Assembly (NCBI GenBank): GCA_022841645.1
Contig: JALHRC010000001.1
Span: 33,346-97,345 of the forward strand
Source: Minisyncoccota bacterium
GTDB lineage: Bacteria > Patescibacteriota > Minisyncoccia > Phycocordibacterales > UBA918
DNA: 64,000 nucleotides
Direction of reading: 5' to 3'
In this document: positions 1,567-57,356 of the stretch, one piece after another
How the letters are laid out: every line of letters starts with the position of its first letter
Position numbering within the stretch: position 1 is the first letter of the stretch
Made by a program: the position numbers and the translations under genes
Notes under the pieces: generated by a model
Database searches by the model: none
What the model saw: only the letters and a program-made list of their open reading frames with translations
Told to the model about the DNA's origin: nothing

Positions 1567-2214
1567 ATGCAGTGGCTCATCGGTATCGACGAAGTGGGGC
1601 GGGGGCCTTTGGCGGGGCCAGTGATGGTCGGGGTGGTGGCCGTTCCTGTTGATTTTGATTGGACGTTGTTGCCTGGAGTTACTGATAGTAAAAAGCTGTC
1701 GGAAAAGCGGCGGGAAGCAATTTACAAAAATGCAAATGATTTGCAAGGTCAGGGGAAGCTTATATATAGGGTTGCGGGTGAGTCGGCGCAGGTGATTGAC
1801 GAAATCGGCATCGTTCCTGCTATTAAGCTTGCGCTTGAACGAGCGCTTGGCGAAGTGATGGAGCAAGTACAAATTTCCCCGAGGACCGACCTCGGGATAA
1901 AAAACCCGAGGTCGGTCCTCGGGTTTGACGGTGTGTTGGTGAAGCTCGACGGTGGTTTGGTGGCACCTCCCGAATACGTACATCAGGAGACAATTATCAA
2001 GGGGGATGGCAGCGAGCCGGTAATTGGTCTTGCGTCCATCGTGGCCAAGGTGACGCGTGATCGGGAAATGGTGCGGTTGTCGAGCGAGTACTCTGGGTAT
2101 GACTTGGATGTACATAAGGGGTATGGGACGGCGGCGCACTGCGCAGCGGTGCGCCGCCTCGGCCTTTCTCCGCTGCATCGGCGTAGCTTCTGTCGTAACC
2201 TAGTAGCGCGTTAG
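1567..2214 (+). CDS. rnhB: Ribonuclease HII
   Basis: MQWLIGIDEVGRGPLAGPVMVGVVAV... is the typical RNase HII N-terminus with the DEVGRG motif. The start was taken at the internal ATG 1567 rather than the ORF-track start 1510. Confidence 0.85.
   Translation: MQWLIGIDEVGRGPLAGPVMVGVVAVPVDFDWTLLPGVTDSKKLSEKRREAIYKNANDLQGQGKLIYRVAGESAQVIDEIGIVPAIKLALERALGEVMEQVQISPRTDLGIKNPRSVLGFDGVLVKLDGGLVAPPEYVHQETIIKGDGSEPVIGLASIVAKVTRDREMVRLSSEYSGYDLDVHKGYGTAAHCAAVRRLGLSPLHRRSFCRNLVAR
1877..1923. repeat. Palindromic mini-element (RPE-like) inserted in-frame inside rnhB
   Basis: ccccgaggaccgacctcggg-ataaaaaa-cccgaggtcggtcctcggg: two perfectly complementary 19-20-nt arms. It translates in the rnhB frame as ...SPRTDLGIKNPRSVLG.... 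A second copy sits in prmC (36607..36650). Confidence 0.7.
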
Positions 2215-2221
2215 ACACCGT

Positions 2222-2600
2222 GAGGTGGTTGACGAAGGGAAAGCGGGCGTAGTACGGTTACCTCATTCTCGCGGTTGGCGCGAGGGGTTCTTCAGGGAAG
2301 GGGGTTCCTGTGGGAGAGATCGTTGTTCCGGCTGGTAAGCAGTGCGCTGCCGTTTGCTCGTGTGCGTTTCCGCGCGACGGATCTGCCTGTTCGAAAGGAA
2401 TACCTGGGTTGGTTCCACCCGAATGTGATGGCTTCCTTCCTTTCGATTTCGGCCGTGGGGTGTGTCGCGTAGGCTGCAGCTGGGAATCGCAACCCGTTCC
2501 AGTGGTTGGTCGGCGCGCGATCGAGGCTGGCCGCCAATAGGGTTCAATCAACCCAAAATTAGATGGCCGACGGGAATTCCCCCGTCGGCGTTGGTGTTTT
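2222..2600 (+). ncRNA. Candidate structured non-coding RNA (possibly RNase P RNA); identity unresolved
   Basis: A ~380-nt G+C-rich block with no credible ORF; the track ORFs here overlap in all six frames. It has many local helices. Segments AGGGAAGGGGGUUCC (~2294) and GGAAUCGCAACCCGUUCC (~2481) could form a P4-like GGGUU/AACCC pairing. It ends in a strong hairpin plus T-run. Confidence 0.25.
2566..2600 (+). terminator. Rho-independent terminator-like hairpin + T-run
   Basis: gccgacggg-aattcc-cccgtcggc (9-bp stem) followed by gttggtgtttt. Confidence 0.55.
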
Positions 2601-2740
2601 AGGAGTTTAATTATCCACCTGGGTACGGCACTCATTCGGTTGACAGTGAAGGCTTTTGTATACTATGGTGTGCTTTGGCCTCGCGATTTTTGTTAGTGAG
2701 GTATACGATCTTTCATTTTTTCAAGGGGGGGGGTAGCCAA

Positions 2741-2953
2741 GTGCCTAAGCAAGATTACGAGCCGCCAGTTGGTCTTCCGTGTCAGCGAAATTGTGTACGT
2801 GCAGGAAAAGATGCCTGTGTGCATGGGAAGCACTACGCTCCTGATAACGGCATGATCACTGAGAAGTGCGTGGGAGCATACTATCCCCAGTACGTTCTTG
2901 AGATGGGGCTTGTCACTGTCGCACGTAAGACACAGCCGCTCGCGGCTGACTGA
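2741..2953 (+). CDS. Small Cys-containing hypothetical protein upstream of rpmF (YceD/DUF177-like position)
   Basis: GTG at 2741 is preceded by the G-rich SD-like tract aaggggggggg. It encodes 70 aa (MPKQDYEPPVGLPCQRNCVRAGKDACVHGKHY...) with 4 Cys. The longer ORF-track version (2675) starts at TTG. Confidence 0.3.
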   Translation: MPKQDYEPPVGLPCQRNCVRAGKDACVHGKHYAPDNGMITEKCVGAYYPQYVLEMGLVTVARKTQPLAAD

Positions 2954-3033
2954 ATGCAGCCGATGCGCCCGCGGGGGAACCCCTCCCGCGGCGCTTTGCT
3001 TTTTTATACAAAGCTGCTATAGTAGCGCCCATT

Positions 3034-3294
3034 ATGGTAGTCCGAATGCGTCATACAAGCGGTCAAACCCGCAGCCGCCGTTCCCACCACGCGCTTGAGG
3101 CGACAGCCCTCGCGGTGTGCAAGAACTGTGGTGCAGAGCACCGCCCGCACCACATGTGCCTTAGTTGTGGTTTTTATAAGGGTCGGGTAGTAATTGATCT
3201 CCTCGCGAAGAAGAAAGCCCGTGAGGCGCGCCTCGCAGAGAAGCGGGCCATCATCCGTGGGGATGAAGCGTCTCCCGTTACCGAAGAGAAATAA
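3034..3294 (+). CDS. rpmF: 50S ribosomal protein L32 (with C-terminal extension)
   Basis: MVVRMRHTSGQTRSRRSHHAL...C..CG..H..H.C..CG.Y matches the L32 consensus (M.VRMRHT.G.TRSRRSHHAL.) and its zinc ribbon. Confidence 0.85.
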   Translation: MVVRMRHTSGQTRSRRSHHALEATALAVCKNCGAEHRPHHMCLSCGFYKGRVVIDLLAKKKAREARLAEKRAIIRGDEASPVTEEK

Positions 3295-10296: not shown

Positions 10297-10365
10297 AAAT
10301 AAAAACGCATAACTATTTCATAATAGACTCAAGTACCTTCATGTTGTGATGAGGGCCTTGCGCAG

Positions 10366-10417
10366 ATACACCGAAAATCACCGCGATCCTAGGATCGCGG
10401 TGATTTTCGGTGTATCG
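10366..10417. repeat. 52-nt perfect palindrome (hairpin) between convergent smc and rnr
   Basis: gatacaccgaaaatcaccgcgatccta|ggatcgcggtgattttcggtgtatc, exact. It could serve as a bidirectional terminator. Confidence 0.6.
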
Positions 10418-10493
10418 AGCAGAGGGGCATGGTTCTCCATCAAGAGAACCGTGAACACGTGCCCGAGGCGCGACGTGAAGGTGCCTAAGTAGG

Positions 10494-12434
10494 TTACGCC
10501 ACTAATTCAAAATCAAGTTGTCGCTCATCCTTGAGTACCTTCACTAATTTGATTTTTATCTCATCACCAAGGCGATAAATCTTGCCGGTCTTTTGTCCCT
10601 TCACACGGTAGTTCTTGGGGTCGTGCTCGTAGTAGTCGCCCTTGATGGCAGCCAGGCGCACCATTCCTTCAGTCAGCGAAGCCTTGTCTTGTACGTACAC
10701 ACCCCAGTCGCTCACGCCGGTAATGACGCCATCAAACGTGTGGCCAATGCGATTTTGCATGTACTCGACCTGTTTGAATTTAATCGAGTCGCGTTCAGCA
10801 GAGACAGCCTCCGCTTCGCGTTGTGACGATTGAATAGCAAGTTTCTCATAGTGGGCGAGCTCACCACCCTTGATGCCCGAATGGTCGAGATGGCGGCGCA
10901 AAAGACGGTGGGCCATGAGGTCGGGGTAGCGACGAATCGGGGAAGTAAAGTGTGTGTAGTACTTAAAGGCGAGACCAAAGTGGCCGATATTGCGCGTCGA
11001 GTAGACTGCCTTCGCCATGCTGCGGATGGTGGCGGTTTTGATGAGGTTTGCTTCGGGCTTGCCTTCCACTTCAGCGAGGAGCTTATTAACATTCTTCGCC
11101 GTGACGACCCCTTTGTGAGTTTCGAACTCATAGCCCAGGGCATTGAGAAACAGCGAGAGCCCTTCGATTTTGTCGGGGTTGGGTGTGTCGTGGATGCGGT
11201 AGATAAAGGCGAGGTCACGCCCGCTGTCTTTGGCAAGGTCGTAGATGTAGGTGGCCACCTCACGGTTGGCGAGCAGCATGAAATCCTCGATCATCATCAT
11301 GGTCTCGGTGCGGACTTTGGTATAGACGCGAATGGGGGCGCCGCGCTCGTCGAGCTCAAATTTCACCTCGGGCTGTTCAAAAGCAATCGCGCCCTCGCGG
11401 TAGCGTTCTTTGCGTAAAAGGCGTCCTTGGGTCATGAGCGTCGTGAGCTCACCATGAAAAGGTCCCTCACCACGGTCGAGGACTTCCTGCGCTTCTTCAT
11501 AGCTAAAACGTTTGTTGGAGTGGATGACGGTCTGTCCGTACCAGGCGTTCACAATATCTGCGCTGGGAGTGAGTTCAAAGATGGCTGAGAAGGCGAGGCG
11601 ATCTTCGTTTGGTCGTAGAGAACAGAGGTCATTACTGAGCACTTCGGGAAGCATTGGAATGACGCGGTCTACTAAATAGACCGAGGTGCCGCGCTCCTGT
11701 GCTTCTTTATCAATCGGCTCGCCGTCGCGCACGTAGTGGGAGACGTCGGCGATATGAATACCGACCTCGATGTTGCCCGAAGGGAGGGTGCGGACCGATA
11801 AGGCGTCGTCAAAGTCTTTTGCGTCCGCGGGGTCGATGGTCATAGTGGTGACGTCGCGCAGATCGCGGCGCTGTGGATCGGCGAGCGCTTCACGGAAAAT
11901 TTCGTCGCGGCGCGCGTGGATATCTTCGGCTGCTTTGGCTACTTCTGCCGGAAAGTCGACGGCAAACCCGCCACCGCGAATGATGGCGCGCATTTCTGTC
12001 TCATGATCACCTGAGCGTCCCAAGATCTCAATGATAGAGGCTTTGGGTTCTTGCTTGGGGTCAGTCCAGTCGGTGAGTGTGATTACGACCTTCATGCCTG
12101 TCTCTCCGGCGGCTTCAGCGGGGAGGGTAGGGCGGACATGGATACGGTGATTATCGGGCTGGAGATAGAGGCTCGTGCGATCACCGGGAGTGCGCTCTTT
12201 CACAATACCGATAAGCTCACGGTGGACGCGCTCGAGCACTTTTACCACTGTCCCCTCTGCCCGCTGCCCAGCCTGTGGCGGGGTATAGGTTACTTCGACA
12301 ATATCGCCATCGAGCGCGAGGCCCAGGCGGTCGCGTTCAATAACAATATCTTGGGTAAGATCAGGGTGGGCGAGGAAGCCGGTGCCCTTGCCGCGGATCA
12401 TGATGGGTCCAGCGACGGTATGTAGCGTAGTCAC
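10494..12434 (-). CDS. rnr: Ribonuclease R / RNase II-family 3'-5' exoribonuclease
   Basis: 646 aa with a central RNB catalytic domain and a C-terminal S1 domain (...GVITGVSDWGVYVQ...). Confidence 0.8.
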   Translation of the reverse strand: MTTLHTVAGPIMIRGKGTGFLAHPDLTQDIVIERDRLGLALDGDIVEVTYTPPQAGQRAEGTVVKVLERVHRELIGIVKERTPGDRTSLYLQPDNHRIHVRPTLPAEAAGETGMKVVITLTDWTDPKQEPKASIIEILGRSGDHETEMRAIIRGGGFAVDFPAEVAKAAEDIHARRDEIFREALADPQRRDLRDVTTMTIDPADAKDFDDALSVRTLPSGNIEVGIHIADVSHYVRDGEPIDKEAQERGTSVYLVDRVIPMLPEVLSNDLCSLRPNEDRLAFSAIFELTPSADIVNAWYGQTVIHSNKRFSYEEAQEVLDRGEGPFHGELTTLMTQGRLLRKERYREGAIAFEQPEVKFELDERGAPIRVYTKVRTETMMMIEDFMLLANREVATYIYDLAKDSGRDLAFIYRIHDTPNPDKIEGLSLFLNALGYEFETHKGVVTAKNVNKLLAEVEGKPEANLIKTATIRSMAKAVYSTRNIGHFGLAFKYYTHFTSPIRRYPDLMAHRLLRRHLDHSGIKGGELAHYEKLAIQSSQREAEAVSAERDSIKFKQVEYMQNRIGHTFDGVITGVSDWGVYVQDKASLTEGMVRLAAIKGDYYEHDPKNYRVKGQKTGKIYRLGDEIKIKLVKVLKDERQLDFELVA

Positions 12435-13413: not shown

Positions 13414-13527
13414 CAGAAACAAGGAAGGGGGCCGAAGGCTGATTATGTTTTGCTGACGCAGGCGCTTCGCTACTTTTGAGCTTCAAAGAGAAAAAAGTAG
13501 CGGCGGCGAGCTGCCAAACTGAAGAAC

Positions 13528-13566
13528 GAAAGCACCGCCCCAAAGGGGCGGTGCTTTCGTCTGTTT
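13528..13566 (+). terminator. Rho-independent terminator after the KH gene
   Basis: gaaagcaccgcccc-aaa-ggggcggtgctttc followed by gtctgtttgt. Confidence 0.6.
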
Positions 13567-21990: not shown

Positions 21991-22034
21991 TTTGAAAGAG
22001 AAAAGAGAATAGCGAAGAGTTAAAATTTAAGAAA

Positions 22035-22070
22035 AACAGCGCGGCACCGTAGGTGCCGCGCTGTTTTTCT
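22035..22070 (+). terminator. Rho-independent terminator after rpoC
   Basis: cagcgcggcacc-gtag-gtgccgcgctg followed by tttttct. Confidence 0.7.
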
Positions 22071-22212: not shown

Positions 22213-22256
22213 CAGCAGCACTACTACTATCATGCATGATAGTAGTAGTGCTGCTG
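22213..22256. repeat. 44-nt perfect palindrome centred on ATGCAT
   Basis: cagcagcactactactatcatg|catgatagtagtagtgctgctg, exact. Confidence 0.7.
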
Positions 22257-22686: not shown

Positions 22687-24453
22687 ATGTCCGATGCGGT
22701 GCGGCAAGTGAAGGAGCGACTCAATATTATTGATGTGGTTTCGCCGTATGTGGAACTCCACAAGGCGGGGCGGAACTTTAAGGGCAAGTCGCCCTTTAGC
22801 AACGAACGCACCCCATCGTTTTATGTCTCGCCCGAGCGCGGGATGTACTACTGTTTTTCCACGAGCCAGGGTGGCGACATTTTTACCTTCATCCAAGCGA
22901 TGGAGGGGGTCGACTTTAAAGGCGCGTTAAAGATTTTAGCCGAGAAAGCCGGCATCGAGCTTGTTCCCGAGGCACCGGAAAAGCGCAGCGAGCGCGATCG
23001 CCTCTACGCACTCCTTGAAGACACCACGAAGTTTTTTGAAGAGTGGCTGCCGCAAGCAAGTGTTGCTACCGACTATATAAAAAAACGTGGCGTTACGCTT
23101 GCCACGGTTGCTAAGTGGCGTATTGGCTACGCCCCGGGTCCGACCTCAGGTGGCTGGCGGCTTCTTAAAGAACATCTTACCGGGAAAGGGTATGCCGTTA
23201 TCGAGATGCTCAAGGCGGGAATGGTAAAGCCGGGAGTAGACGGCAAGGAGCCGTTTGATGTATTTCGTGACCGGGTGATGTTTCCACTGCGCGACCCCTC
23301 GGGGAAGGTGGTGGGCTTCTCGGGTCGCACACTTACCCCCGACGAGAAAACACCGAAGTACGTTAACTCACCAGAAACTGAGCTCTACAAAAAATCTGAA
23401 CTGCTCTTTGGCTATGACCTCGCTAAAAACGCCATTCGCACCCTCGACTTCTCCCTGATTGTCGAAGGGCAGTTTGATGTCGTGATGAGTCACCAGGCAG
23501 GCTATGGCAACACCGTAGCGGTCTCAGGCACGGCCCTCACCCTTCACCACGTACAACTCCTCGAGCGGCTCTCTACTCGGGTAGTACTTGCCCTTGATGC
23601 CGATCGGGCGGGAATCGCTGCGATGGGCCGCGCAGCCAGTCTCATGCTTGAGCGGGGCTTTGACGTGAAGGTTGCAAAACTCCCACCCGGGGCCGATCCG
23701 GCTGACCTGGTGCGGAGTGATCCGGCGGCACTGAAGGCCGCCGTCGGAGGAGCCTTACCGGTTATCGAATTTCTCCTGGGCCATCTCAAAACTACGGTGA
23801 GCGATGAGCGCGCGTACAAACTACGTGTACGCGAGGAAGTAATTCCGTACATCACGCTTATTCCTAACCGCATCGACCAAGAGCACTTTGTGGGCGTCGT
23901 TGCCGCCGCACTGGGGGTCGGTGTCGAGGCCGTGCGCTATGAGGTGGAGCGTTCGCGCGCCGAACATGAGCGGGAAGTGATAAAAGCAGCCCAGCATGTG
24001 CCGGCGCCAAAGGTGGACGCAGTATCAGAAAATCTGCGAGCCCGTGGTGCTGAGCAGCGGGAGCTGTTTATTTCCTGGCTGGTGGCGGCGGTTGGTCTCT
24101 TGCCAGCGCGCGAGGCGGCCGTCCTCACCACACTCATTACTGAGTGCACCGGAAGCGAACTCGCGGTCCTCCAACAAAACCGTTCGTCTGATGCCCTGGC
24201 GCGCGCTACGATCGACATTGGTAATCGCTACGAGACGCGCAGTGAGCGAGCGCTGCTTGAGGACGTCATTGCTACCCTCAACCTGGTGCGCGACCTGGGG
24301 GTGCGAGAGGCGATTGCCGAACGTAAGATGCTCCTTAGAGAGATCGAAGCGGGTGGGGAGGGAAGTGTGGACACGCTCCTGTCTGAAATCACCCTCCTCG
24401 AGAGCCAGCGCAAGGCCCCTCCCTATACTATTGAGCGTTTCGTGACCACTTGA
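22687..24453 (+). CDS. dnaG: DNA primase
   Basis: N-terminal CHC2 zinc finger (...YYCFSTSQGGDIFTFI...), a Toprim domain (LIVEGQFDVVMSHQAG), and TATAAT at 22663-22668 upstream. Confidence 0.9.
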   Translation: MSDAVRQVKERLNIIDVVSPYVELHKAGRNFKGKSPFSNERTPSFYVSPERGMYYCFSTSQGGDIFTFIQAMEGVDFKGALKILAEKAGIELVPEAPEKRSERDRLYALLEDTTKFFEEWLPQASVATDYIKKRGVTLATVAKWRIGYAPGPTSGGWRLLKEHLTGKGYAVIEMLKAGMVKPGVDGKEPFDVFRDRVMFPLRDPSGKVVGFSGRTLTPDEKTPKYVNSPETELYKKSELLFGYDLAKNAIRTLDFSLIVEGQFDVVMSHQAGYGNTVAVSGTALTLHHVQLLERLSTRVVLALDADRAGIAAMGRAASLMLERGFDVKVAKLPPGADPADLVRSDPAALKAAVGGALPVIEFLLGHLKTTVSDERAYKLRVREEVIPYITLIPNRIDQEHFVGVVAAALGVGVEAVRYEVERSRAEHEREVIKAAQHVPAPKVDAVSENLRARGAEQRELFISWLVAAVGLLPAREAAVLTTLITECTGSELAVLQQNRSSDALARATIDIGNRYETRSERALLEDVIATLNLVRDLGVREAIAERKMLLREIEAGGEGSVDTLLSEITLLESQRKAPPYTIERFVTT

Positions 24454-25866: not shown

Positions 25867-25877
25867 ACACTAAGAAC

Positions 25878-25916
25878 ACAAAGCCCCGCGCCGTTGGCGC
25901 GGGGCTTTGTGTTCTG
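25878..25916 (+). terminator. Rho-independent terminator after rpoD
   Basis: aaagccccgcgcc-gttg-gcgcggggcttt followed by gtgttct. Confidence 0.7.
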
Positions 25917-36073: not shown

Positions 36074-36919
36074 TTATTGTAGCACCAAGATAGAAAAGCG
36101 CAGGACACCAAATTGGTCGCTGTGGGAACTCGCAGTAAAGCCATGGGTGTGGGCGAGGTCCGTAACGATGGGCACGTGTTCGGGTTCGTGTTCGATCCAT
36201 AGCTCTCCGCTCGCCGTAAGGTGCCCCCGGGCTCCCTTAATGATTCGTTCGATGATTTCTATACCACCTTGCCCGCCATAGAGCGCTAGGTGTGGTTCAT
36301 GCCTTTTGACAGACTGTTCAGCTCGGTCGATAGCGGGGTCAATATACGGTGGATTGGCAAGGATGAAATCAAATGTACCTGCTACCTGTTCAAACAAATC
36401 AGAACAAAGGAGAATAGTACGATCGATCGTACTATTCTTGCGGCGGTTCTTTTCAATGGTCGGGAGGTGAGTGGGGTCAATCTCGGCGAAGGTGACGTGC
36501 GCACCTCGTACATGCTTTGCGATCGCTACACCGATACAGCCCGAGCCAGCGCAGAGGTCAAGGATGGAAATGTCACCGGCCGCTTGGCTCTGTACAACAC
36601 TGTCTTCCCCCGAGGACCGACCTCGGGTAAATCCGAGGTCGGTTCTCGGGACAGTGATTTCCATTATGTTTGCCCCTAGGCTCTCCCTGGGGATAGCCTT
36701 GCTAATGCTGGCAACGGCCTTTTCTACCCACCACTCGGTTTCGGGGCGGGGGATGAGTGGACGACTATCGAGCCAGATTTTGCAACCCAAAAACGGTACC
36801 CAACCAATCACATAGCTGAGCGGTTCCCCAGCTTTAAGACGCTCACAATCGGCCGAAAAACCCGCGGTTTTTCGGCCGAGATATTTCTCGTTTAGTAGCC
36901 AGTTGATGTCTTGCTCCAT
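36074..36919 (-). CDS. prmC: Release-factor glutamine N5-methyltransferase (PrmC/HemK)
   Basis: ...LDLCAGSGCIGVAIA... (SAM motif I) and ...FDFILANPPYI... (NPPY). The true start is likely ATG 36919 (MEQDINWLLNEKYLGRK...); the long ORF-track N-terminal extension has no homology pattern. Confidence 0.75.
   Translation of the reverse strand: MEQDINWLLNEKYLGRKTAGFSADCERLKAGEPLSYVIGWVPFLGCKIWLDSRPLIPRPETEWWVEKAVASISKAIPRESLGANIMEITVPRTDLGFTRGRSSGEDSVVQSQAAGDISILDLCAGSGCIGVAIAKHVRGAHVTFAEIDPTHLPTIEKNRRKNSTIDRTILLCSDLFEQVAGTFDFILANPPYIDPAIDRAEQSVKRHEPHLALYGGQGGIEIIERIIKGARGHLTASGELWIEHEPEHVPIVTDLAHTHGFTASSHSDQFGVLRFSILVLQ
36607..36650. repeat. Second copy of the palindromic RPE-like mini-element, in-frame inside prmC
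   Basis: cccccgaggaccgacctcggg-taaat-ccgaggtcggttctcggg, with one mismatch in the right arm. In the prmC frame it encodes ...VPRTDLGFTRGRSSGE..., the same PRTDLG peptide as the rnhB copy. Confidence 0.7.
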
Positions 36920-39381: not shown

Positions 39382-40410
39382 ATGAAACACGCTACCAAGC
39401 TCTACGAAACAGTTGCTGCACTGATGGCACCCGGCAAGGGTATTTTGGCCGCTGACGAAAGTGACGCCACGGCGGGGAAGCGCCTCGCGATGGTACACCT
39501 CCCCAATGAGCCAGAACACCGACAAGACTTCCGCGAACTCCTCTTTACTGCTCCAGGTATCGAAGAATATCTTTCTGGTGTTATTCTCTACGATTCTTCG
39601 ATCAAGAATTTTACCGACGACGGTGTACCATTTCCTGATGTACTGACTGCCAAGGGTATTGTGCCCGGCATCAAGGTGGATATTGGTACCAAGGACCTTC
39701 ACGGGTTTAAGGGTGAGGTAGTCACCGAAGGACTCGATGGTCTCGACGATCGCTTTGCCGAATACTATGAGCTGGGGGCGCGGTTTGCTAAGTGGCGATC
39801 AGTTATTTTGATTGATGAAGAGCACACTCCAACTGACGCCGCCCTTGAGATGAACGCGCTCCAACTCGCACGCTACGCGCAGCTCGCCCAAGCTGCGGGC
39901 ATTGTACCTATGGTCGAGCCAGAAGTGCTCTATGCCGGTGATCACTCAATTGCACGGGCGGAAATGGTGACTACTCGTACCCTACAGATCCTTTTCCAAG
40001 CCTTGATTAAATACCGCGTCGATTTACCAGGGCTGATTCTTAAGTCCTCGATGGTGCTCGCGGGCGACATGAATCACGACCAATCATTGCCAGAAGAGAT
40101 TGCGAACGCCACCCTCAGGACCTTTCATATGTCGGTACCACACGAGGTGGGCGGAATTGTCTTTCTCTCCGGTGGCCAAACACCCAAGCGCGCGACTGAA
40201 AACCTCAACGCCATTGCGAAGCTCGGTGAACAACCATGGCCGATCACCTTCTCCTACTCCCGCGCGATTGAAGAGCCCGTTCTCCTTACCTGGCAAGGCA
40301 AGCCAGAGAACATTCCTGAGGCACAAAAAATGCTCCTCCATGCGGTAAAGATGAATAGCCTGGCGGCCCAGGGGCAGTATGATGCGGCGAAGGATACGAA
40401 GTTGAAGTAG
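39382..40410 (+). CDS. fba: Fructose-bisphosphate aldolase, class I
   Basis: MKHATKLYETVAALMAPGKGILAADES... and a Schiff-base lysine context (...VLLEGDMN-like ILKSSMVLAGD...). Start at internal ATG 39382. Confidence 0.8.
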   Translation: MKHATKLYETVAALMAPGKGILAADESDATAGKRLAMVHLPNEPEHRQDFRELLFTAPGIEEYLSGVILYDSSIKNFTDDGVPFPDVLTAKGIVPGIKVDIGTKDLHGFKGEVVTEGLDGLDDRFAEYYELGARFAKWRSVILIDEEHTPTDAALEMNALQLARYAQLAQAAGIVPMVEPEVLYAGDHSIARAEMVTTRTLQILFQALIKYRVDLPGLILKSSMVLAGDMNHDQSLPEEIANATLRTFHMSVPHEVGGIVFLSGGQTPKRATENLNAIAKLGEQPWPITFSYSRAIEEPVLLTWQGKPENIPEAQKMLLHAVKMNSLAAQGQYDAAKDTKLK

Positions 40411-40412
40411 CA

Positions 40413-40438
40413 AAAAAGCTCCCTTCGGGAGCTTTTTT
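40413..40438. terminator. Bidirectional rho-independent terminator (between fba and rpmG)
   Basis: aaaaaagctccc-ttcg-ggagctttttt. Confidence 0.75.
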
Positions 40439-40540
40439 GCTAACAGATAATGTGGTAGTTCGGAGTGGTAGTTCCAGCGATTTGCCCAAGGGAAAGGCAA
40501 ATCGGGAACAAAATTCGCCATAGTCGCTACGCTCGTTGGC

Positions 40541-48152: not shown

Positions 48153-48427
48153 AAAAGCTAACGCTCAAAAAAATAGTAAGCAAAGAAACTTCCAACACTG
48201 CACGAATATGGCAATGCACCTCTGTTCTTTCTCTAGAGGGTGCAGGAGTGTAATGAGAGGGCGAACGTGTCGCCGCGCAGCCTAAGAGCCCTGCACGCAA
48301 TTCCTAAGGTGCCGTTACACTAACATGAAGTAAGCTAAAGGTCAATCACCTACACGAGCACGCTGCTGTCTCGCCTCGGGCACGTGTTCACTGTTCTCTT
48401 TTAGGGAGAACAGTGCCCCTCTGCTCG

Positions 48428-48475
48428 CAGCACGGAAAAGCACCAGACATTTGTCTGGTGCTTTTCCGTGCTGCT
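48428..48475. terminator. 23-bp perfect palindromic hairpin (terminator of apbE operon / 5'UTR structure of helicase)
   Basis: gcagcacggaaaagcaccagaca-ttt-gtctggtgcttttccgtgctgc. Confidence 0.6.
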
Positions 48476-48542
48476 GCGCAAGGCCCCCATCGCGACACCA
48501 GCGTGCTCGTAATCAAAGTAAGGTCAGATTTCCACGGGCTTT

Positions 48543-49403
48543 TTAGAGCGATTGAAAAGGGAAGTGAGCGGTAAAAAAGGTGCTGGTGGCGGGGTGGTAG
48601 CGCGCGACGCCAAGGCCCTCCCGCTCTGCGAGGTCGGTAAGGGCAGCTTCGGGGAGCAGGAGTACGGCGGTCGCAAAGGCGTCGGCGTCGCGCGCGCTTT
48701 TCGCTAGCACAAAACTAGCGGCTTCGGTCTCTCCTATTATGTGGTGCTCGGTGCGGCCGTCTTTCCGCCACACTCGTTTGAAGGGACTCGAAGCGGCGAA
48801 GCCCCGGTTTTTGAGTGCTACCGTACCGAGATAGGTGTCGACCTCGGTGGGATGTTCGAGATGGATAGTGAGTGGCGCATCGTCGTCAGTGCTGCCGTAC
48901 ATATCACCCCCACCATTTATAAGAAATGACGCTACGCCACGGCTCCTTAATAGTGTCGCGAGTTCATCAACTAAATAGCCCTTTCCGAAACCGCCCGGGT
49001 CGAAGCTACCGGTTTCGAGTCTGATCTCACCCTCGGTGATGATGAGGTCGCTCTCGGGTGACGGCAGAGCGGCCGCAACCGCGGCCGCTCTGCCGTCACC
49101 ATAACCTCGCGCTACTAGTACTTCGCCCACCAAGCAATTAAATGTCCCCTCGGTACGTGTAAATAGCTCTTGCGCATACCTAAACAGCGCTAGACACGCG
49201 GGGTCGGGCACGCGCAGTACGCGCTCGCGATTGAGGATACCGACGAGTGAGTCCGGTCGAAACCTCGAGTAACGCGCTTCAAAGGTTGTTATGAGTGAAG
49301 TGAGTTCTGCGTGCACGTCTCCATGGTCAACTCCTATGGGCAGAGTTGCTTCGATCCACCACGCCGTGCCGAGAGCCGGAAAGCGGTCGAGGAGGAACTC
49401 CAT
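48543..49403 (-). CDS. apbE: FAD:protein FMN transferase (ApbE family)
   Basis: 286 aa with the ApbE fold pattern, including ...GGFGKGYLVDELA... and the C-terminal ...DADAFATAVLLL.... Confidence 0.75.
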   Translation of the reverse strand: MEFLLDRFPALGTAWWIEATLPIGVDHGDVHAELTSLITTFEARYSRFRPDSLVGILNRERVLRVPDPACLALFRYAQELFTRTEGTFNCLVGEVLVARGYGDGRAAAVAAALPSPESDLIITEGEIRLETGSFDPGGFGKGYLVDELATLLRSRGVASFLINGGGDMYGSTDDDAPLTIHLEHPTEVDTYLGTVALKNRGFAASSPFKRVWRKDGRTEHHIIGETEAASFVLAKSARDADAFATAVLLLPEAALTDLAEREGLGVARYHPATSTFFTAHFPFQSL

Positions 49404-50015: not shown

Positions 50016-51578
50016 ATGACAGATTTATTTCATAAGGTAGCGGCCCCGTTTGCGCGTCATCTCGACCGCACTGGTATGTATCGCGTAGTGACGCAGAGTC
50101 TCATTGCCTTAACACTCATCTCACTCATTGCTGGAGCGTTTGGCCGTATACCGTACACCGTTCCCGAGCAGCTTATTTCACTTGCTCTAGCACTCGGGAC
50201 GGCATTTCTATTTAACGCTCTCGGAGCCCGGCTGTGGCGCATACATGTTAATTATGAATCCGCTATTATCACTGCGCTTATAGTCCACTTCCTCGTGGTA
50301 CCACCGACACTGAGTAGCGTGGTGGACAACTGGCAGGTGATGGCCGTGACGGCCATCGCTATTACGTCGAAATTTGTACTCGCTTGGCGTGGGCAGCATC
50401 TTATGAATCCGGCTGCGACGGGCGCTGTTGTGCTCGCGCTCGGCCTAGGGTTCTTTTCCACCACCGGTTTTTATAGTGGTTGGTGGATCGGCAGTCCCAC
50501 GCTGTTTATCCCACTGCTTATCTGTGGCGCTCTCGTGGTCTCGAAAGTCCGGGCCTGGCCACCGGTCTTGGCGTTTCTTGGTGTTGGCTTTCTGGTCTTT
50601 CTGTTTGAAGAGTGGCGCTTTAGTGGGGATGTGATCACGGGCGCGCAATATTTTTGGCTATCAGGACCATCAATCTTTTTGGCGGCCTTTATGCTCACTG
50701 AGCCGTTTACCATGCCACCAACCCGTAATCTTCGTCTGGCCTACGGTGCACTGGTGGGCGCGATCGCACAAACTTCGCTCTTCATGCCGTTTGTTACCAT
50801 TACTCCTGAGCTCGCGCTCGTTGCTGGCAACTTGGCGTTTTTTAGTTTTACAGTTCGACAAAAGCTCCGGTTGCCGCTCCTGCAGGCCCGCACAATTGCC
50901 GACCGCACCTACGAGCTAATCTTTAAAAAGCCGGCTAGTTTTACCTTTAAAGCGGGGCAGTACCTGGAGTGGATGTTGCCGCATCAAGGTGCCGACAGTC
51001 GGGGTATTCGCCGCTATTTCACGATCGCTTCATCGCCCACCGAGCCCGATATTCGCCTGGCGCTCCGCGTGCCTCCGGAAGCGGGGAGTACCTACAAGCA
51101 ATCACTTGTATCCCTCGCGCCCGGGCAGGTGGTGACCGCGAGCCAGCTGGCGGGAGATTTTGTACTGCCGAGCGATCATACACTTAAAATTGCGATGGTG
51201 GCCGGTGGCATTGGGGTCACACCATTTCGTAGTCACTTGGCGTTTCTTACCGATGCCGGTACCAAACAAGACATCGTACTTTTTTACTGTAACAACACTG
51301 CTGCAGAGATTGCTTATAAGGATGAGTTTGCGCACTTTGCGAAGGCGCTACCGCTGCGGATAGTACATGTTTTAGCCAAGGAAACGGTTCGGGGTGCCGA
51401 GTATGAGCAAGGCTTCTTGTCAGGTGAAATTATTGTCCGCCGCAGCCCCGATTACCGAGAACGTCTTTGGTATGTCTCCGGTCCACCACCAATGGTAAAC
51501 GCTATTACGTCACAGCTGCGCACACTTGGCGTGCCACGTGGGCAGATCGTGAAGGACTTTTTCCCGGGCCTAGCCTAG
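50016..51578 (+). CDS. Fusion protein: RnfD/NqrB-like polytopic membrane domain + ferredoxin-NADP reductase-type FAD/NAD(P)H-binding domain
   Basis: The N-terminal ~280 aa have 8+ TM helices and GQHLMNPAATGAVVL (cf. RnfD/NqrB GQNPFNPAM). The C-terminus has RRYFTIASSP (R-x-Y-S/T FAD site) and GGIGVTPF (NAD(P)H site). -10 TACAAT at 50002-50007. Confidence 0.65.
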   Translation: MTDLFHKVAAPFARHLDRTGMYRVVTQSLIALTLISLIAGAFGRIPYTVPEQLISLALALGTAFLFNALGARLWRIHVNYESAIITALIVHFLVVPPTLSSVVDNWQVMAVTAIAITSKFVLAWRGQHLMNPAATGAVVLALGLGFFSTTGFYSGWWIGSPTLFIPLLICGALVVSKVRAWPPVLAFLGVGFLVFLFEEWRFSGDVITGAQYFWLSGPSIFLAAFMLTEPFTMPPTRNLRLAYGALVGAIAQTSLFMPFVTITPELALVAGNLAFFSFTVRQKLRLPLLQARTIADRTYELIFKKPASFTFKAGQYLEWMLPHQGADSRGIRRYFTIASSPTEPDIRLALRVPPEAGSTYKQSLVSLAPGQVVTASQLAGDFVLPSDHTLKIAMVAGGIGVTPFRSHLAFLTDAGTKQDIVLFYCNNTAAEIAYKDEFAHFAKALPLRIVHVLAKETVRGAEYEQGFLSGEIIVRRSPDYRERLWYVSGPPPMVNAITSQLRTLGVPRGQIVKDFFPGLA

Positions 51579-51629
51579 GACGAGTAGCCTTTCACAGGTC
51601 CGACCTGTGAATATTAAAGAGTACCTGAT

Positions 51630-52292
51630 TTACCACTCGATCGGAGTTTGGCCGCGTTCCTTCAAATAGGCATTGGCTTTGCTGAAGTGTTTGCAGCCGA
51701 AAAAGCCATTATAGGCAGAGAAGGGGGAGGGGTGAGCTGCTTCGAGGATTAAATGTTTATCGCGATTGATGTGGGCACCTTTTTGCTTGGCGTAGTTGCC
51801 CCACAGCATAAACACTAGGTGCTCGCGCTCCTCGGAAAGCGCTTTCACTACAGCGTCGGTAAATTGTTCCCAACCCTTGCCTTGATGCGAGCCGGGACTA
51901 CTGGCTGCCACCGTCAGTGTGGCGTTAAGTAAAAGTACGCCTTGCTTGGCCCAGCGCTCGAGATTACCGGAGGAGGGAATTGGTGTACCAATGTCATCAG
52001 CGATTTCCTTATACATGTTTTGTAGCGACGGCGGCGGTCGCACACCATCGCGCACTGAGAAGGAAAGACCGTGGGCTTGGCCAACACCGTGATACGGGTC
52101 TTGTCCCAAAATTACTACCTTTACCTTTGCAAAAGGGCAGTGCGCAAAAGCGTTGAAGATATCTTTTGGCGCCGGATAGACCGTGCCGGCGAGGTAGGCG
52201 GCGCGCACAAATTCCTTGAGCTCCTTGAAATAATCCTGTTCGAATTCAGGGGCGAGCACCATTTTCCAGCTTTCTTCAATACGAACGTTCAT
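51630..52292 (-). CDS. ung: Uracil-DNA glycosylase (family 1)
   Basis: GQDPYHGVGQAHGLSFSV and HPSPFS(A) motifs. Confidence 0.9.
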   Translation of the reverse strand: MNVRIEESWKMVLAPEFEQDYFKELKEFVRAAYLAGTVYPAPKDIFNAFAHCPFAKVKVVILGQDPYHGVGQAHGLSFSVRDGVRPPPSLQNMYKEIADDIGTPIPSSGNLERWAKQGVLLLNATLTVAASSPGSHQGKGWEQFTDAVVKALSEEREHLVFMLWGNYAKQKGAHINRDKHLILEAAHPSPFSAYNGFFGCKHFSKANAYLKERGQTPIEW

Positions 52293-52320: not shown

Positions 52321-52467
52321 AGCGTCACGGCAGCAATTGTTCGGCACGCGTCTCGTTTTCTCTTGGGGGAGAAAACACGCGCTCCCGCTCAGGGTGGTAC
52401 TTTTCTCAAGCAGGCTTGAGAAAAGTACCACCCTTCCGCGAGACCTCACATTTGCTGCCGTGACGCT
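52321..52467. repeat. Nested inverted-repeat element (16-bp perfect outer arms, 20-bp inner hairpin, extra 8-bp hairpin)
   Basis: Outer arms are agcgtcacggcagcaa ... ttgctgccgtgacgct. Inner hairpin is agggtggtacttttctcaag-caggc-cttgagaaaagtaccaccct. It also contains gctcccgctc and a ccgcgag motif, as in the 10158..10296 element. Confidence 0.6.
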
Positions 52468-55904: not shown

Positions 55905-57200
55905 ATGCAAATCTTTATCAAAGGTACTTTAATTGCGGTTGTGGCCATTGGAGTTTTCTCTTCAGTAGTGGTTTTCGACCTGCAACAGCACGCTGGCTAC
56001 CTTACTTCCACAGTAGCCGCTTTCGGTGAAGGTGGTAATGATGGTGGTGGTGGTAATGACGGCGGTAGTAACGGTGGTGATGGTGGTAATGATGGTTGTG
56101 GTGGTTGTAATCCTGCACCTGCTGACCCGGGAGGCGGCGGCACCACTAACCCCCCTTCAAACGAAAACGGTGGTGATATTCCACCCCCTCCACCCCCGCA
56201 GCCTCCGGCAAACATCCCGCCCGTGTGTACCTTACAGGCAAACCTTACCTCAATCGTGCGGGGTAACAGCGCAGTCCTCACCTGGACCATGAGTGCCGAC
56301 ACCACCGGTGCGACGCTCAATGGCGCTTTCCTGGCCGTCGGAAATGGTTCACAGACGGTCTCTCCGACTGAGACTATTACCTACACCATATTAGTAACCG
56401 ATGGCGAACTCTCTTCTACGTGTGCCGCTACGGTAACGGTTACTACCACTCCCACTACACCGACCTTCACGTGTGAAAACAACGTGACCTTGAGCGTTAG
56501 TCCAACCCGTATCACGCGTGGCAATAGTGCAACAATTTCCTGGAACGTTACGGGTGCAACCAGTGTGTCGATCGATAATGGGGTGGTGACCAATAATGCC
56601 CGTTCTGGATCGGCAGCCGTGTCGCCTAGCGACAGCACCACCTATACACTTACCGCAGTGAAGGGTGCTACTACCATTACCTGCGCGGTAACGCTTACTG
56701 TAGAGAGTGGTGGCGGAGGTGGGGGTGGTGGCGGTTCTTCTACTCCCCGCTGTGAGCTCACGGCGTCTGACCGCACTATTCGCTCGGGCGACCGGGTCAC
56801 CCTCCGTTGGGAGACGTCACGCGCTACCTTTGTCGAAATTCGCGACAATCGTAACAATGTGATTGTGACCACCCGCGGCAAGCTTGGTCGCGATAAGGAA
56901 GAGCTGTATGACGGCAGCATTACCGTGCGTCCAGCCCGCGATACCACTTATACCCTCACGGCAGAACGTGGTAGTCGTGATCGTGAATGTACGGTAAAGA
57001 TCGATGTGAGTGACGACGTTACGGTAATCCGTGATCAACAGCCACTCGTGGTCAGTATCCCACTTTCCTCACTACCGTACACTGGTGTTGACGCAAAGAC
57101 GGCGATGCAGCTCTCGATATTGGCACTCCTTGTAGCATGGGCCGGGTACCTCGCGTACACCTTCTACCGCCGCGACAAGTTGGCAGTAGTGAAGCGCTAA
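55905..57200 (+). CDS. Sortase-anchored (LPxTG-type) surface protein with three Cys-bracketed Ig-like repeats
   Basis: N-terminal TM/signal; a Gly/Asn/Asp-rich tract and P9 linker. Three ~85-aa repeats (C..L..(R)GNSA.L.W.......TYTLTA..G....C..T..V). C-terminal LPYTG + hydrophobic helix + RRDK tail is the classic sorting signal. Confidence 0.75.
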   Translation: MQIFIKGTLIAVVAIGVFSSVVVFDLQQHAGYLTSTVAAFGEGGNDGGGGNDGGSNGGDGGNDGCGGCNPAPADPGGGGTTNPPSNENGGDIPPPPPPQPPANIPPVCTLQANLTSIVRGNSAVLTWTMSADTTGATLNGAFLAVGNGSQTVSPTETITYTILVTDGELSSTCAATVTVTTTPTTPTFTCENNVTLSVSPTRITRGNSATISWNVTGATSVSIDNGVVTNNARSGSAAVSPSDSTTYTLTAVKGATTITCAVTLTVESGGGGGGGGGSSTPRCELTASDRTIRSGDRVTLRWETSRATFVEIRDNRNNVIVTTRGKLGRDKEELYDGSITVRPARDTTYTLTAERGSRDRECTVKIDVSDDVTVIRDQQPLVVSIPLSSLPYTGVDAKTAMQLSILALLVAWAGYLAYTFYRRDKLAVVKR

Positions 57201-57227
57201 GGAAGTCAAAACGAGCAAATAAACAAC

Positions 57228-57268
57228 AAAGCCGCGGCCCCCACTATGGGGGCCGCGGCTTTGTCTTA
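57228..57268. terminator. Bidirectional rho-independent terminator
   Basis: aaagccgcggccccc-acta-tgggggccgcggcttt followed by gtcttat. Confidence 0.7.
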
Positions 57269-57356
57269 TGAGTTTCCATGAGGAAACCCCACCCGAGGGA
57301 TACGGGTGGGGTGTGTGGTAGACGGACGACACAAGTGCGTCGTCCGTCTACCACCG

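Follow-up and report, generated by a model that had tools for sequence, protein, structure and literature searches.

In-frame palindromic inserts in rnhB and prmC of a Patescibacteria genome: probable REP-type hairpin doublets associated with a RAYT-like transposase family

Introduction

What is the origin of a 47-nt palindrome that lies within the reading frame of an RNase HII gene without disrupting it? This question is raised by a 64,000-nt stretch of a Minisyncoccota genome (contig JALHRC010000001.1, positions 33,346 to 97,345; this whole stretch is hereafter the window, and all positions refer to it), a member of Patescibacteria. Few known genomes are as streamlined as those of Patescibacteria, which are usually regarded as repeat-poor. 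A first-pass annotation of the window reported the palindrome in rnhB and a near-identical one in prmC, and compared both to the Rickettsia palindromic elements (RPEs), which insert in frame into housekeeping genes. Based on the analysis described here, the inserts are probably miniature REPINs, that is, inverted doublets of a 19-nt hairpin of the repetitive extragenic palindrome (REP) type. These would belong to a Patescibacteria-wide family that is the partner of a HUH/Y1 transposase resembling the REP-associated tyrosine transposases (RAYTs), an explanation to which we assign a probability of about 0.75.

The inserts in rnhB and prmC

The rnhB gene occupies positions 1567-2214 of the forward strand (ATG at 1567, stop codon ending at 2214), matches Pfam RNase_HII with 112.7 bits, and encodes a protein that is 100% identical to P0001 in public data. 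Positions 1877-1923 consist of C-CCCGAGGACCGACCTCGGG-ATAAAAAA-CCCGAGGTCGGTCCTCGGG. The first unit (1878-1896, CCCGAGG-ACCGA-CCTCGGG) is translated as PRTDLG, the 8-nt spacer ATAAAAAA (1897-1904) as IKN, and the second unit (1905-1923, CCCGAGG-TCGGT-CCTCGGG), the exact reverse complement of the first, as PRSVLG, so that the in-frame reading of the insert is ...ISPRTDLGIKNPRSVLGF... The two 19-nt arms, 8 nt apart, are 100% complementary, and the position, perfect arms and in-frame reading reported by the first-pass annotation are all borne out. The description of the element as two arms around an A-rich loop is accurate insofar as the single-stranded doublet folds into one 19-bp hairpin (-27.2 kcal/mol as DNA, -45.1 kcal/mol as RNA, z about -8.4), but it misses that either arm is also a hairpin on its own, CCCGAGG-N5-CCTCGGG, in which a 7-bp stem encloses a loop of 5 nt (DNA folding energies of -8.4 kcal/mol for unit 1 and -9.0 kcal/mol for unit 2). 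The element is a doublet of two units placed head to head, with loops ACCGA and TCGGT, which is the arrangement that defines a REPIN.

The 19-nt core is a GC-rich palindrome of the short kind (20-40 bp) that is characteristic of REPs, and it is often extended to 25-31 nt as CT(G/A)T-core-A(C/T)AG. It contains zero stop codons across all six frames, its readings being P-R-x-x-L-G, P-E-x-x-P-R and R-G-x-x-S-G. A 17-mer search of the window allowing up to 3 mismatches returned 7 matches, compared to 0.15 expected, and 0/100 shuffles reached 7; hairpin units that are exact or carry 1 mismatch number 3, versus 0.07 in shuffles. The near-identical palindromic inserts of rnhB and prmC are not due to chance.

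The second doublet lies in a gene on the reverse strand (36074-36919) whose 281-aa product, P0241, contains a Pfam MTS domain and an NPPY motif and has homologues that go by the name release factor glutamine methyltransferase. This confirms that prmC carries a near-identical element on the opposite strand, at 36609-36650, with 18-nt arms that are 94% complementary and a folding energy of -20.1 (DNA) or -37.1 (RNA) kcal/mol; its translation is TVPRTDLGFTRGRSSGED. One unit, CCCGAGGACCGACCTCGGG on the forward strand (36609-36627), is read on the reverse strand as RGRSSG, and the other, TCCGAGGTCGGTTCTCGGG (36632-36650, 2 mismatches to the consensus), as PRTDLG. The element had been said to give the same peptide in either orientation, and this is true of the unit that is translated first, PRTDLG. 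The other is shifted to the RGRSSG frame because the spacer (36628-36631) measures 4 nt and not 8.

An older, decayed third unit is present in prmC at 36674-36692 (reverse strand CCCCAGG-GAGAG-CCTAGGG, read as PRESLG). This unit occupies the position at which other PrmC homologues hold theirs, and the near-intact doublet follows 8 residues downstream.

Distribution of the hairpin unit across genomes

An exact scan with CCCGAGGWCSGWCCTCGGG, using one genome per species, returned 107 loci, 46 of which were counted to Patescibacteria (42 named lineages plus 4 low-GC metagenome-assembled genomes labelled 'bacterium'). The lineages represented are Saccharibacteria, Paceibacterota, Nomura-, Yonath-, Campbell-, Adler-, Terry-, Nealson-, Falkow- and Staskawicz-bacteria, and Minisyncoccia. 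The remaining loci are mostly from high-GC genomes (60-74% GC), where chance matches are expected or where the 19-mer sits at one conserved orthologous place. Since Patescibacteria contribute what we take, as a rough estimate, to be a few percent of the bases scanned, the enrichment of the 19-mer in this phylum is strong.

The Patescibacteria units that lie within open reading frames (ORFs) use all three frames, and in-frame copies occur in uvrA (L108), a miaA-like gene (L095), and the rnhB (L040) and prmC (L033) genes of Saccharibacteria. Intergenic units form hairpins whose flanks lengthen the palindrome and end in A/T runs, in the manner of terminators. Copies in intergenic regions and in related genomes, where the first-pass annotation proposed to look, were thus found in both, across Patescibacteria. 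Both doublets of the window are intragenic and a single variant, described below, lies between convergent genes, while copies in relatives are often intergenic and terminator-like. Carriage by phages was considered and rejected, as only 2 viral contigs contain the 19-mer.

In high-GC Actinomycetota, the 19-mer is found at two conserved orthologous places that are unrelated to the Patescibacteria family. One is within a small ORF (MKTNAF..PEVGPRGRR..) and the other just upstream of a gene start; the loci concerned are L007, L009, L014, L018, L038, L050, L069 and L105 (Microlunatus and relatives) and L013, L030, L054, L063, L098 and L111 (Microbacterium-like).

A RAYT-like transposase gene beside the hairpins

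Among the loci recovered by the pattern scan, tblastn identified at 10 places an ORF of ~230 aa with the motifs YHxxNRG, PNHFH (HUH) and Y(I/V)HLNP (tyrosine). The latter two are invariant or nearly so, and the protein thus has the HUH motif and catalytic tyrosine of the Y1 fold. It scores 39 and 33.6 bits against Pfam Y1_Tnp (cutoff 23), and its best and only NCBIfam match is the REP-associated tyrosine transposase model (REP_Tyr_transpos, NF047646). The AlphaFold2 (AF2) model of the transposase (mean predicted local distance difference test score, pLDDT, 83.8) has as its best fold match 4er8_A, a complex of the E. coli RAYT with a REP hairpin (E 3e-6), followed by the IS608 and ISDra2 TnpA proteins (E about 1e-3). 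The family comprises 1325 clusters at E <= 1e-3 with sources in Kaiser-, Adler-, Parcu- and Paceibacterota; these carry the name 'transposase' and, once, 'REP-associated tyrosine transposase'.

For 8 of the 10 transposase genes from the pattern scan, hairpin units are intragenic or no more than ~130 nt from a gene end, and tblastn located the gene in none of 80 control rnhB loci. Both units of the window's rnhB doublet have identical counterparts beside such genes in Nomurabacteria: unit 1 matches a unit ~50 nt upstream of the RAYT-like gene at L017, and unit 2 matches a unit downstream of that at L047. As an independent replication, four transposase genes (L200, L201, L202, L203) were picked by protein similarity alone, and 3 of these 4 have hairpins. 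L202 has ACCAAGGACGGTCCTTGGT upstream, ACCGAGGACCGTCCTCGGT within the gene and a doublet at the 3' end. L203 has a doublet, ACAAAGGACCGACCTTTGT-TATG-ACAAAGGTCGGTCCTTTGT, across the gene start and a single unit at the gene end; this doublet follows the same ACCGA...TCGGT plan as the window's, with an outer stem of ACAAAGG/CCTTTGT. At L201, a related doublet lies upstream of the gene.

The transposase gene is located upstream of rplJ-rplL in five genomes in which its copies are only 40-55% identical, a conserved position that supports vertical descent of the gene. No tnpB-like gene was called adjacent to the transposase in four annotated loci. The gene itself hosts the hairpin as well: perfect in-frame units are present at L027 (7412-7430), L044 (6861-6879) and L022 (7339-7357), at a segment conserved family-wide, KY-RGRS(S/F)G-EIF (around residues 55-62), and L087 has a separate, clean 27-nt unit insertion just past the HUH motif.

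Three RAYT-like genes, at L107 (5763-6437), L108 (2053-2709) and L035 (1814-2467), have different palindromes on both sides (GGGCCACCCTTCGC..GCGAAGGGTGGCCC, CCTGCGAGGCCTTGCCTCGCAGG and TGTCAAGGGTTCCCCTTGACA), and several REP types consequently coexist in the phylum.

Occupied loops in RNase HII and PrmC

The closest relatives of the RNase HII (54-72% identity) are from Patescibacteria (Kaiserbacteria, Nomurabacteria, Paceibacterota). In their alignment, the insert falls in a gapped, hypervariable stretch that follows a conserved helix and precedes the KLDGG strand, and in which relatives hold 2, 1 or 0 PRxxLG peptides. Examination of the DNA of six orthologues indicates that the unit beside KLDGG is positionally orthologous in P0002, P0003, P0004, P0005 and P0019. 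The sequence of this unit is CCCGAGGTCGGTCCTCGGG in the window, CCCGAGGACGGTCCTCGGG in P0002, CCCGAGGACCGGCCTCGGG in P0004 and, with compensated changes, TCCTAGGCCGGTCCTAGGG in P0003; it is decayed in P0005 and P0019. Unit 1 of P0002 and unit 2 of P0003 have compensated stems, CCTAGG/CCTAGG. The codons for the conserved P, R, L and G residues are identical in 63% of comparisons within units versus 32% elsewhere in the same genes, where the pairs compared are not independent.

RNase HII proteins of similar identity that have no motif include P0006, P0014-16 and P0018. A neighbour-joining tree calculated with the insert region excluded places unit-free, equally short sequences among unit-bearing ones at least 4 times, a nesting that implies repeated gain or repeated precise loss. 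The Saccharibacteria RNase HII (L040) has a single unit two codons from the site used in the window, which indicates an independent insertion into the same loop. Among metagenomic RNase HII loci, which are mostly distant homologues (37-53% identity), nearly all are without the insert, and so is E. coli RNase HII (7uwe), which aligns only on both sides of the window's insert. The metagenomic loci served as controls for the transposase gene and were of no use for the codon comparison. Comparison of P0006 (no unit) with P0004 (one unit) gave a difference of ~21 nt; the flanks have diverged too far for insertion boundaries or a target to be delimited.

In the AF2 model of the window's RNase HII (pLDDT 89.8), residues 104-119 form a low-confidence coil between the helix at 82-103 and the strand at 123-127, with pLDDT below 50 at residues 106-109 and 113-116. 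In PrmC, the units lie in the linker between ETExWVEKAI and VLDLCAGSG, which spans as few as 29-31 residues in some homologues and as many as 118 in others. In many homologues this linker reads PRxxLG and then RGxxSG, the same doublet in the same two frames. The placement of the inserts in surface loops of both enzymes, as predicted by the first-pass annotation, is thus upheld by the low-confidence coil in RNase HII and the variable-length linker in PrmC. The accompanying view of the insert as specific to one lineage is not, as one or two units occupy these loops in many Patescibacteria orthologues of both proteins, including those of Saccharibacteria.

Other recurrent inserted peptides (AESLGRERKD..., tandem DCPSGNKDIL..., and GGFGWG...SESG) are found in the same PrmC linker of other Patescibacteria homologues (P0249, P0264, P0269, P0273, P0278, P0289, P0294, P0296, P0307, P0321, P0326 and P0359). 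Their recurrence suggests that further insert families may use this loop.

Stem covariation, flanks and related hairpins

Alignment of related hairpins reveals a constant inner segment, AGG-WCSGW-CCT, and an outer stem that covaries: 94.7% of cells are paired, double-sided changes occur in 3/7 pairs, and 0/500 shuffles reach the observed covariation score. The set includes an intergenic variant of the window, TTCACAGG-TCCGA-CCTGTGAA (51589-51612), which keeps the AGG-WCSGW-CCT core with a covaried outer stem and lies between two convergent genes (50016-51578 on the forward strand and 51630-52292 on the reverse strand). A tentative, decayed unit may also be present in dnaG (CCCCGGGTCCGACCTCAGG, 23132-23150; 3 mismatches, read as PGPTSG).

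The palindrome runs on into copy-specific flanks in 49/64 units. Flank frequencies show only a weak T-(A/T)-(T/C) preference, and the constant tags of the GTAG and CGTC superfamilies are not seen. Identity with the CGTC REPs was considered and rejected: CGTC or CTGT precedes some copies, but it is mirrored, paired and not constant. Patescibacteria are naturally competent, and a DNA-uptake sequence was for this reason also considered; it was rejected because the units are sparser than one per kb by orders of magnitude and because they are linked to a transposase. A restriction site or a protein motif (PRxxLG) was rejected because all three frames are used.

Evaluation of the alternatives

Several observations weigh against the proposal that the inserts are REPIN doublets served by a RAYT-like enzyme. 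The protein scores 39.3 and 34.9 bits against NF047646, below the 80-bit cutoff of this curated RAYT model, and a profile of the family searched against PDB sequences retrieved only ISDra2 (E 0.19) and not 4er8; strict membership of the RAYT family is not established by these sequence comparisons. No transposase gene was found within the 64-kb window by tblastn, the transposase locus L200 is without hairpin units, and at L107 and L108 the CCCGAGG unit lies only kilobases away from the transposase gene, which is flanked by other palindromes. The copy number is low: the window holds about 5-7 units, and the scan gave 1-6 exact matches per genome (a single one in a complete 753-kb Campbellbacteria genome). 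Classical REPs number more than 100 copies per genome, and the exact-match counts fall short of this. The unit flanks have no conserved unpaired GTAG or CGTC tag, and several hairpins of the covariation set came from a hairpin search, which biases the set toward pairing. Finally, the occupied rnhB site is common to relatives at 65-72% identity, and on this evidence the window's copies may be old residents and not recent arrivals.

The low scores of the protein bear directly on the possibility that it belongs to an ordinary insertion sequence (IS) of the IS200/IS605 type, the end hairpins of which gave rise to derivatives resembling miniature inverted-repeat transposable elements (palindrome-associated transposable elements). 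Members of this group carry a hairpin at each end, leave their sites by precise excision and integrate at a short, fixed target. Precise excision and a fixed target could account for the reused sites and the nested unit-free orthologues, the protein passes only the general Pfam Y1_Tnp threshold, and its sole PDB sequence match is ISDra2 TnpA. The best fold match, however, is the E. coli RAYT-REP complex 4er8, and a constant neighbourhood upstream of rplJ-rplL at 40-55% identity is not IS-like. Furthermore, no tnpB-like neighbour was called in the four annotated loci, and the same palindrome appears on both sides of the gene, as a single unit or a doublet and in either orientation, without distinct left and right ends. 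This origin is therefore considered unlikely. We judge it equally improbable that each hairpin was selected locally, as a pause site, RNase site, mRNA stabiliser or protein binding site, independently of any transposase. Such a role would be consistent with the conservation of nucleotides beyond the need of the protein (63% versus 32% identical codons), the compensated stem changes at orthologous sites in P0002 (unit 1) and P0003 (unit 2), the great stability of the structure (-45 kcal/mol as RNA), and the occupation of the same loops in many lineages. It does not fit the occurrence of an identical 19-mer in unrelated genes, in three frames, in terminator-like intergenic hairpins and at transposase flanks, nor the many close orthologues without a unit and the decayed copies in P0019 and P0005, and a function common to RNase HII, PrmC, UvrA and the transposase gene is hard to imagine. 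Hairpins that arrived as mobile DNA may nevertheless have been co-opted secondarily.

The two remaining explanations are far less probable. If the palindrome had arisen independently at each site by template-switch ('quasi-palindrome perfection') mutations in a palindrome-rich genome, the many long perfect palindromes of the window, some of them in ORFs without a length change relative to homologues, and the continuation of the palindrome into copy-specific flanks in 49/64 units would be expected. The identical 19-mers across genes and genomes of different classes and their adjacency to a transposase are not explained, and template switching, itself very improbable as the whole account, is refuted as the origin of the core; it may contribute to the extension of the flanks. 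The least probable alternative is an ancestral protein feature, in which PRxxLG is a functional motif of RNase HII and PrmC and the palindrome a by-product of codon choice. The first-pass annotation held that a homologous peptide at the same position in orthologues from unrelated taxa would point to such a feature, and many homologues of RNase HII and PrmC do have PRxxLG at a common position. What is shared is nonetheless a DNA palindrome and not a protein motif, because all three frames are used and many orthologues, as well as the E. coli enzyme, are without the insert. In other genes, and in the second unit of prmC, the translation of this DNA is PExxPR or RGxxSG; P0006, P0014-16, P0018, E. 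coli RNase HII and most metagenomic Patescibacteria RNase HII proteins have no motif, and the segment is predicted as a low-confidence coil with codon choice constrained to keep the pairing. This alternative is largely refuted.

Proposed origin of the inserts

The REPIN explanation suggests the following route. By analogy with E. coli TnpA-REP and IS608 TnpA, for which recognition and cleavage of hairpins on single-stranded DNA are established, the RAYT-like enzyme would bind the hairpins on single-stranded DNA and would then cut and rejoin them, thereby copying or moving units singly or as doublets. Any copy inserted into a gene would always be translatable, because the core is free of stop codons in six frames, and would survive if its length keeps the frame and the site is a tolerant surface loop, such as the helix-to-strand loop of RNase HII or the PrmC linker before motif I (LDLCAGSG). 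As a stop-free unit would be filtered only by its length and the tolerance of the site, the same permissive loops would be occupied repeatedly. Intergenic copies would settle at the tips of terminator-like hairpins.

Presumably, the transposase mobilises the units, the genome from which the window derives still has the transposase gene, and the added peptides are neutral. Since the gene does not lie within the 64-kb window, we infer rather than observe any current mobility of the window's copies.

A broader and more tentative proposal, to which we give somewhat less than an even chance, is that the partnership of the RAYT-like protein and its REPs is ancient, vertically inherited and phylum-wide. 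The AGG-WCSGW-CCT core would then predate the split of Saccharibacteria and Paceibacteria, and units would have been repeatedly inserted into, and precisely removed from, the same loops and terminator tips. If this proposal is correct, the units are a standing source of protein-loop and terminator variation in minimal genomes, and the family is one that is often in frame within genes, like the CGTC REPs, yet has its own transposase.

Other palindromes and features of the window

The window contains further palindromes. Two intergenic copies of an element of ~150 nt, at 10342-10494 (forward strand) and 48348-48497 (reverse strand), are 38 kb apart, inverted and ~79% alike. Each includes a perfect palindrome (10365-10416 with 26-nt arms and 48427-48474 with 23-nt arms) whose sequence differs between the copies while its flanks are conserved. 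These copies could belong to a family of structured RNAs, or they could mark the two ends of a 38-kb element. An Rfam search near 10365 gave only spurious miRNA-precursor matches to the plain hairpin, and no Rfam family reached its gathering score anywhere in the 64-kb window (no tRNA, rRNA or known riboswitch).

Eight long perfect palindromes lie between long ORFs (25873-25915, 22030-22070, 57226-57264, 57315-57354, 40408-40442, 13526-13560, 52391-52434 and 22213-22256). With arms of 16-22 nt and loops of 0-4 nt they are much longer than ordinary terminator stems; each is unique, and 5 are within ~50 nt of an ORF end. Perfect palindromes are also present in coding sequence, in prmC at 36411-36438 and 36849-36879 and in the ORF at 48543-49403 at 49057-49100. 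The two in prmC are not insertions, because they are associated with no length change relative to homologues.

Between rnhB and rpmF, ~800 nt (2215-3033) contain no convincing ORF, where the relatives L006, L196 and L197 have only about 390-450 nt; Rfam gave no match to positions 2200-3050 even at E <= 1. An imperfect, GGT-rich tandem repeat with periods of 9-18 nt lies inside an ORF at 56025-56105.

Significance and comparison with known systems

These findings extend REP/RAYT systems to Patescibacteria (the candidate phyla radiation). They trace at least some insertions in the Patescibacteria proteins examined here to a specific source and explain part of the loop-length variation of PrmC and RNase HII. 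Annotation is affected as well, since the units mimic 'conserved motifs' (PRxxLG, RGRSSG, PEDRPR) and place mRNA hairpins of great stability in essential genes.

REPs, REPIN doublets and the repeats that flank RAYT genes are well described (Nunvar 2010, PMC2817692; Bertels & Rainey 2011, PMC3116915; Bertels 2017, PMC5581495), and housekeeping-like behaviour has been reported for RAYTs (PMC5581495). The present family resembles the REP/BIME (bacterial interspersed mosaic element) system of E. coli with TnpA-REP and the REPINs of Pseudomonas in its short GC-rich hairpins, in its inverted doublets that fold as one hairpin, and in repeats that directly flank a Y1/HUH gene (here in related genomes). 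As in these systems, stem variants differ between protein lineages, the gene resides in a conserved chromosomal neighbourhood, some repeats are found at gene ends or between convergent genes, and the best match of the predicted fold is 4er8. The family differs in that it occurs in Patescibacteria, with genomes of about 1 Mb, and has a 19-nt core, doublets of 42-47 nt, a low copy number, no constant unpaired GTAG tag and a protein below the NCBIfam RAYT cutoff. Furthermore, one core is kept across classes here, whereas classical REPs are specific to a species or genus, and many of the present copies are in frame inside genes, including the transposase gene. Among the papers searched, none links RAYTs or REPINs with Patescibacteria, the candidate phyla radiation, Saccharibacteria or Parcubacteria.

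Elements of the IS200/IS605 group and their miniature derivatives share with the family the Y1 HUH fold, the catalytic motifs and, by analogy, the recognition of single-stranded hairpins, and their precise excision and fixed targets would fit the presence/absence pattern described above. The gene described here differs from them in that it looks single-site and syntenic, with no TnpB partner seen and with the same palindrome on both sides.

The closest parallels to the inserts themselves are REPs inside genes. The in-frame insertion of a palindrome into conserved genes without disruption, by which RPEs are recognised, is what is found in rnhB and prmC, two unrelated housekeeping genes, and in this respect the units behave as the short RPEs do; RPE-1 is much longer, at about 100-150 bp. 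The RPE-like reading of the first-pass annotation thus stands, but 'analogous' understates the relationship, as the element is of the REP/REPIN type and belongs to a family that flanks a RAYT-like gene. The novelty that this reading implied is smaller than it appeared. Intragenic REPs were described by Di Nocera et al. 2013 (PMC3733652); they often occur as dimers that code for 20-30 residues, and genes of replication and repair, such as uvrA and uvrB, are frequent hosts. The same authors equated the Rickettsia elements RPE-4 and RPE-6 with REPs of the CGTC type, which have no known transposase (PMC3733652). Like these, the present units occur as in-frame singles and dimers in housekeeping genes, adding roughly 6-30 residues, and replication and repair genes are often hit (here rnhB, uvrA and possibly dnaG). 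In the CGTC REPs, the stem measures 8-9 bp and starts with A/T pairs, and it is accompanied by a CGTC/TGTC tag that is unpaired and by a CCA tail (PMC3733652); judged by this description only, the units described here differ in having a 7-bp GC stem and no constant tag and in flanking a transposase gene. Because intragenic REP dimers, including RPE-4 and RPE-6, were already published, the inserts represent no new kind of element but an already-known one, miniature mobile DNA of the REP/RAYT kind, now seen in a new phylum. With hairpins both beside a transposase gene and, commonly, within genes, the family provides a good test case for how RPE-like in-frame palindromes are mobilised, and for whether the insertion sites of Y1 enzymes are hairpin tips or fixed targets.

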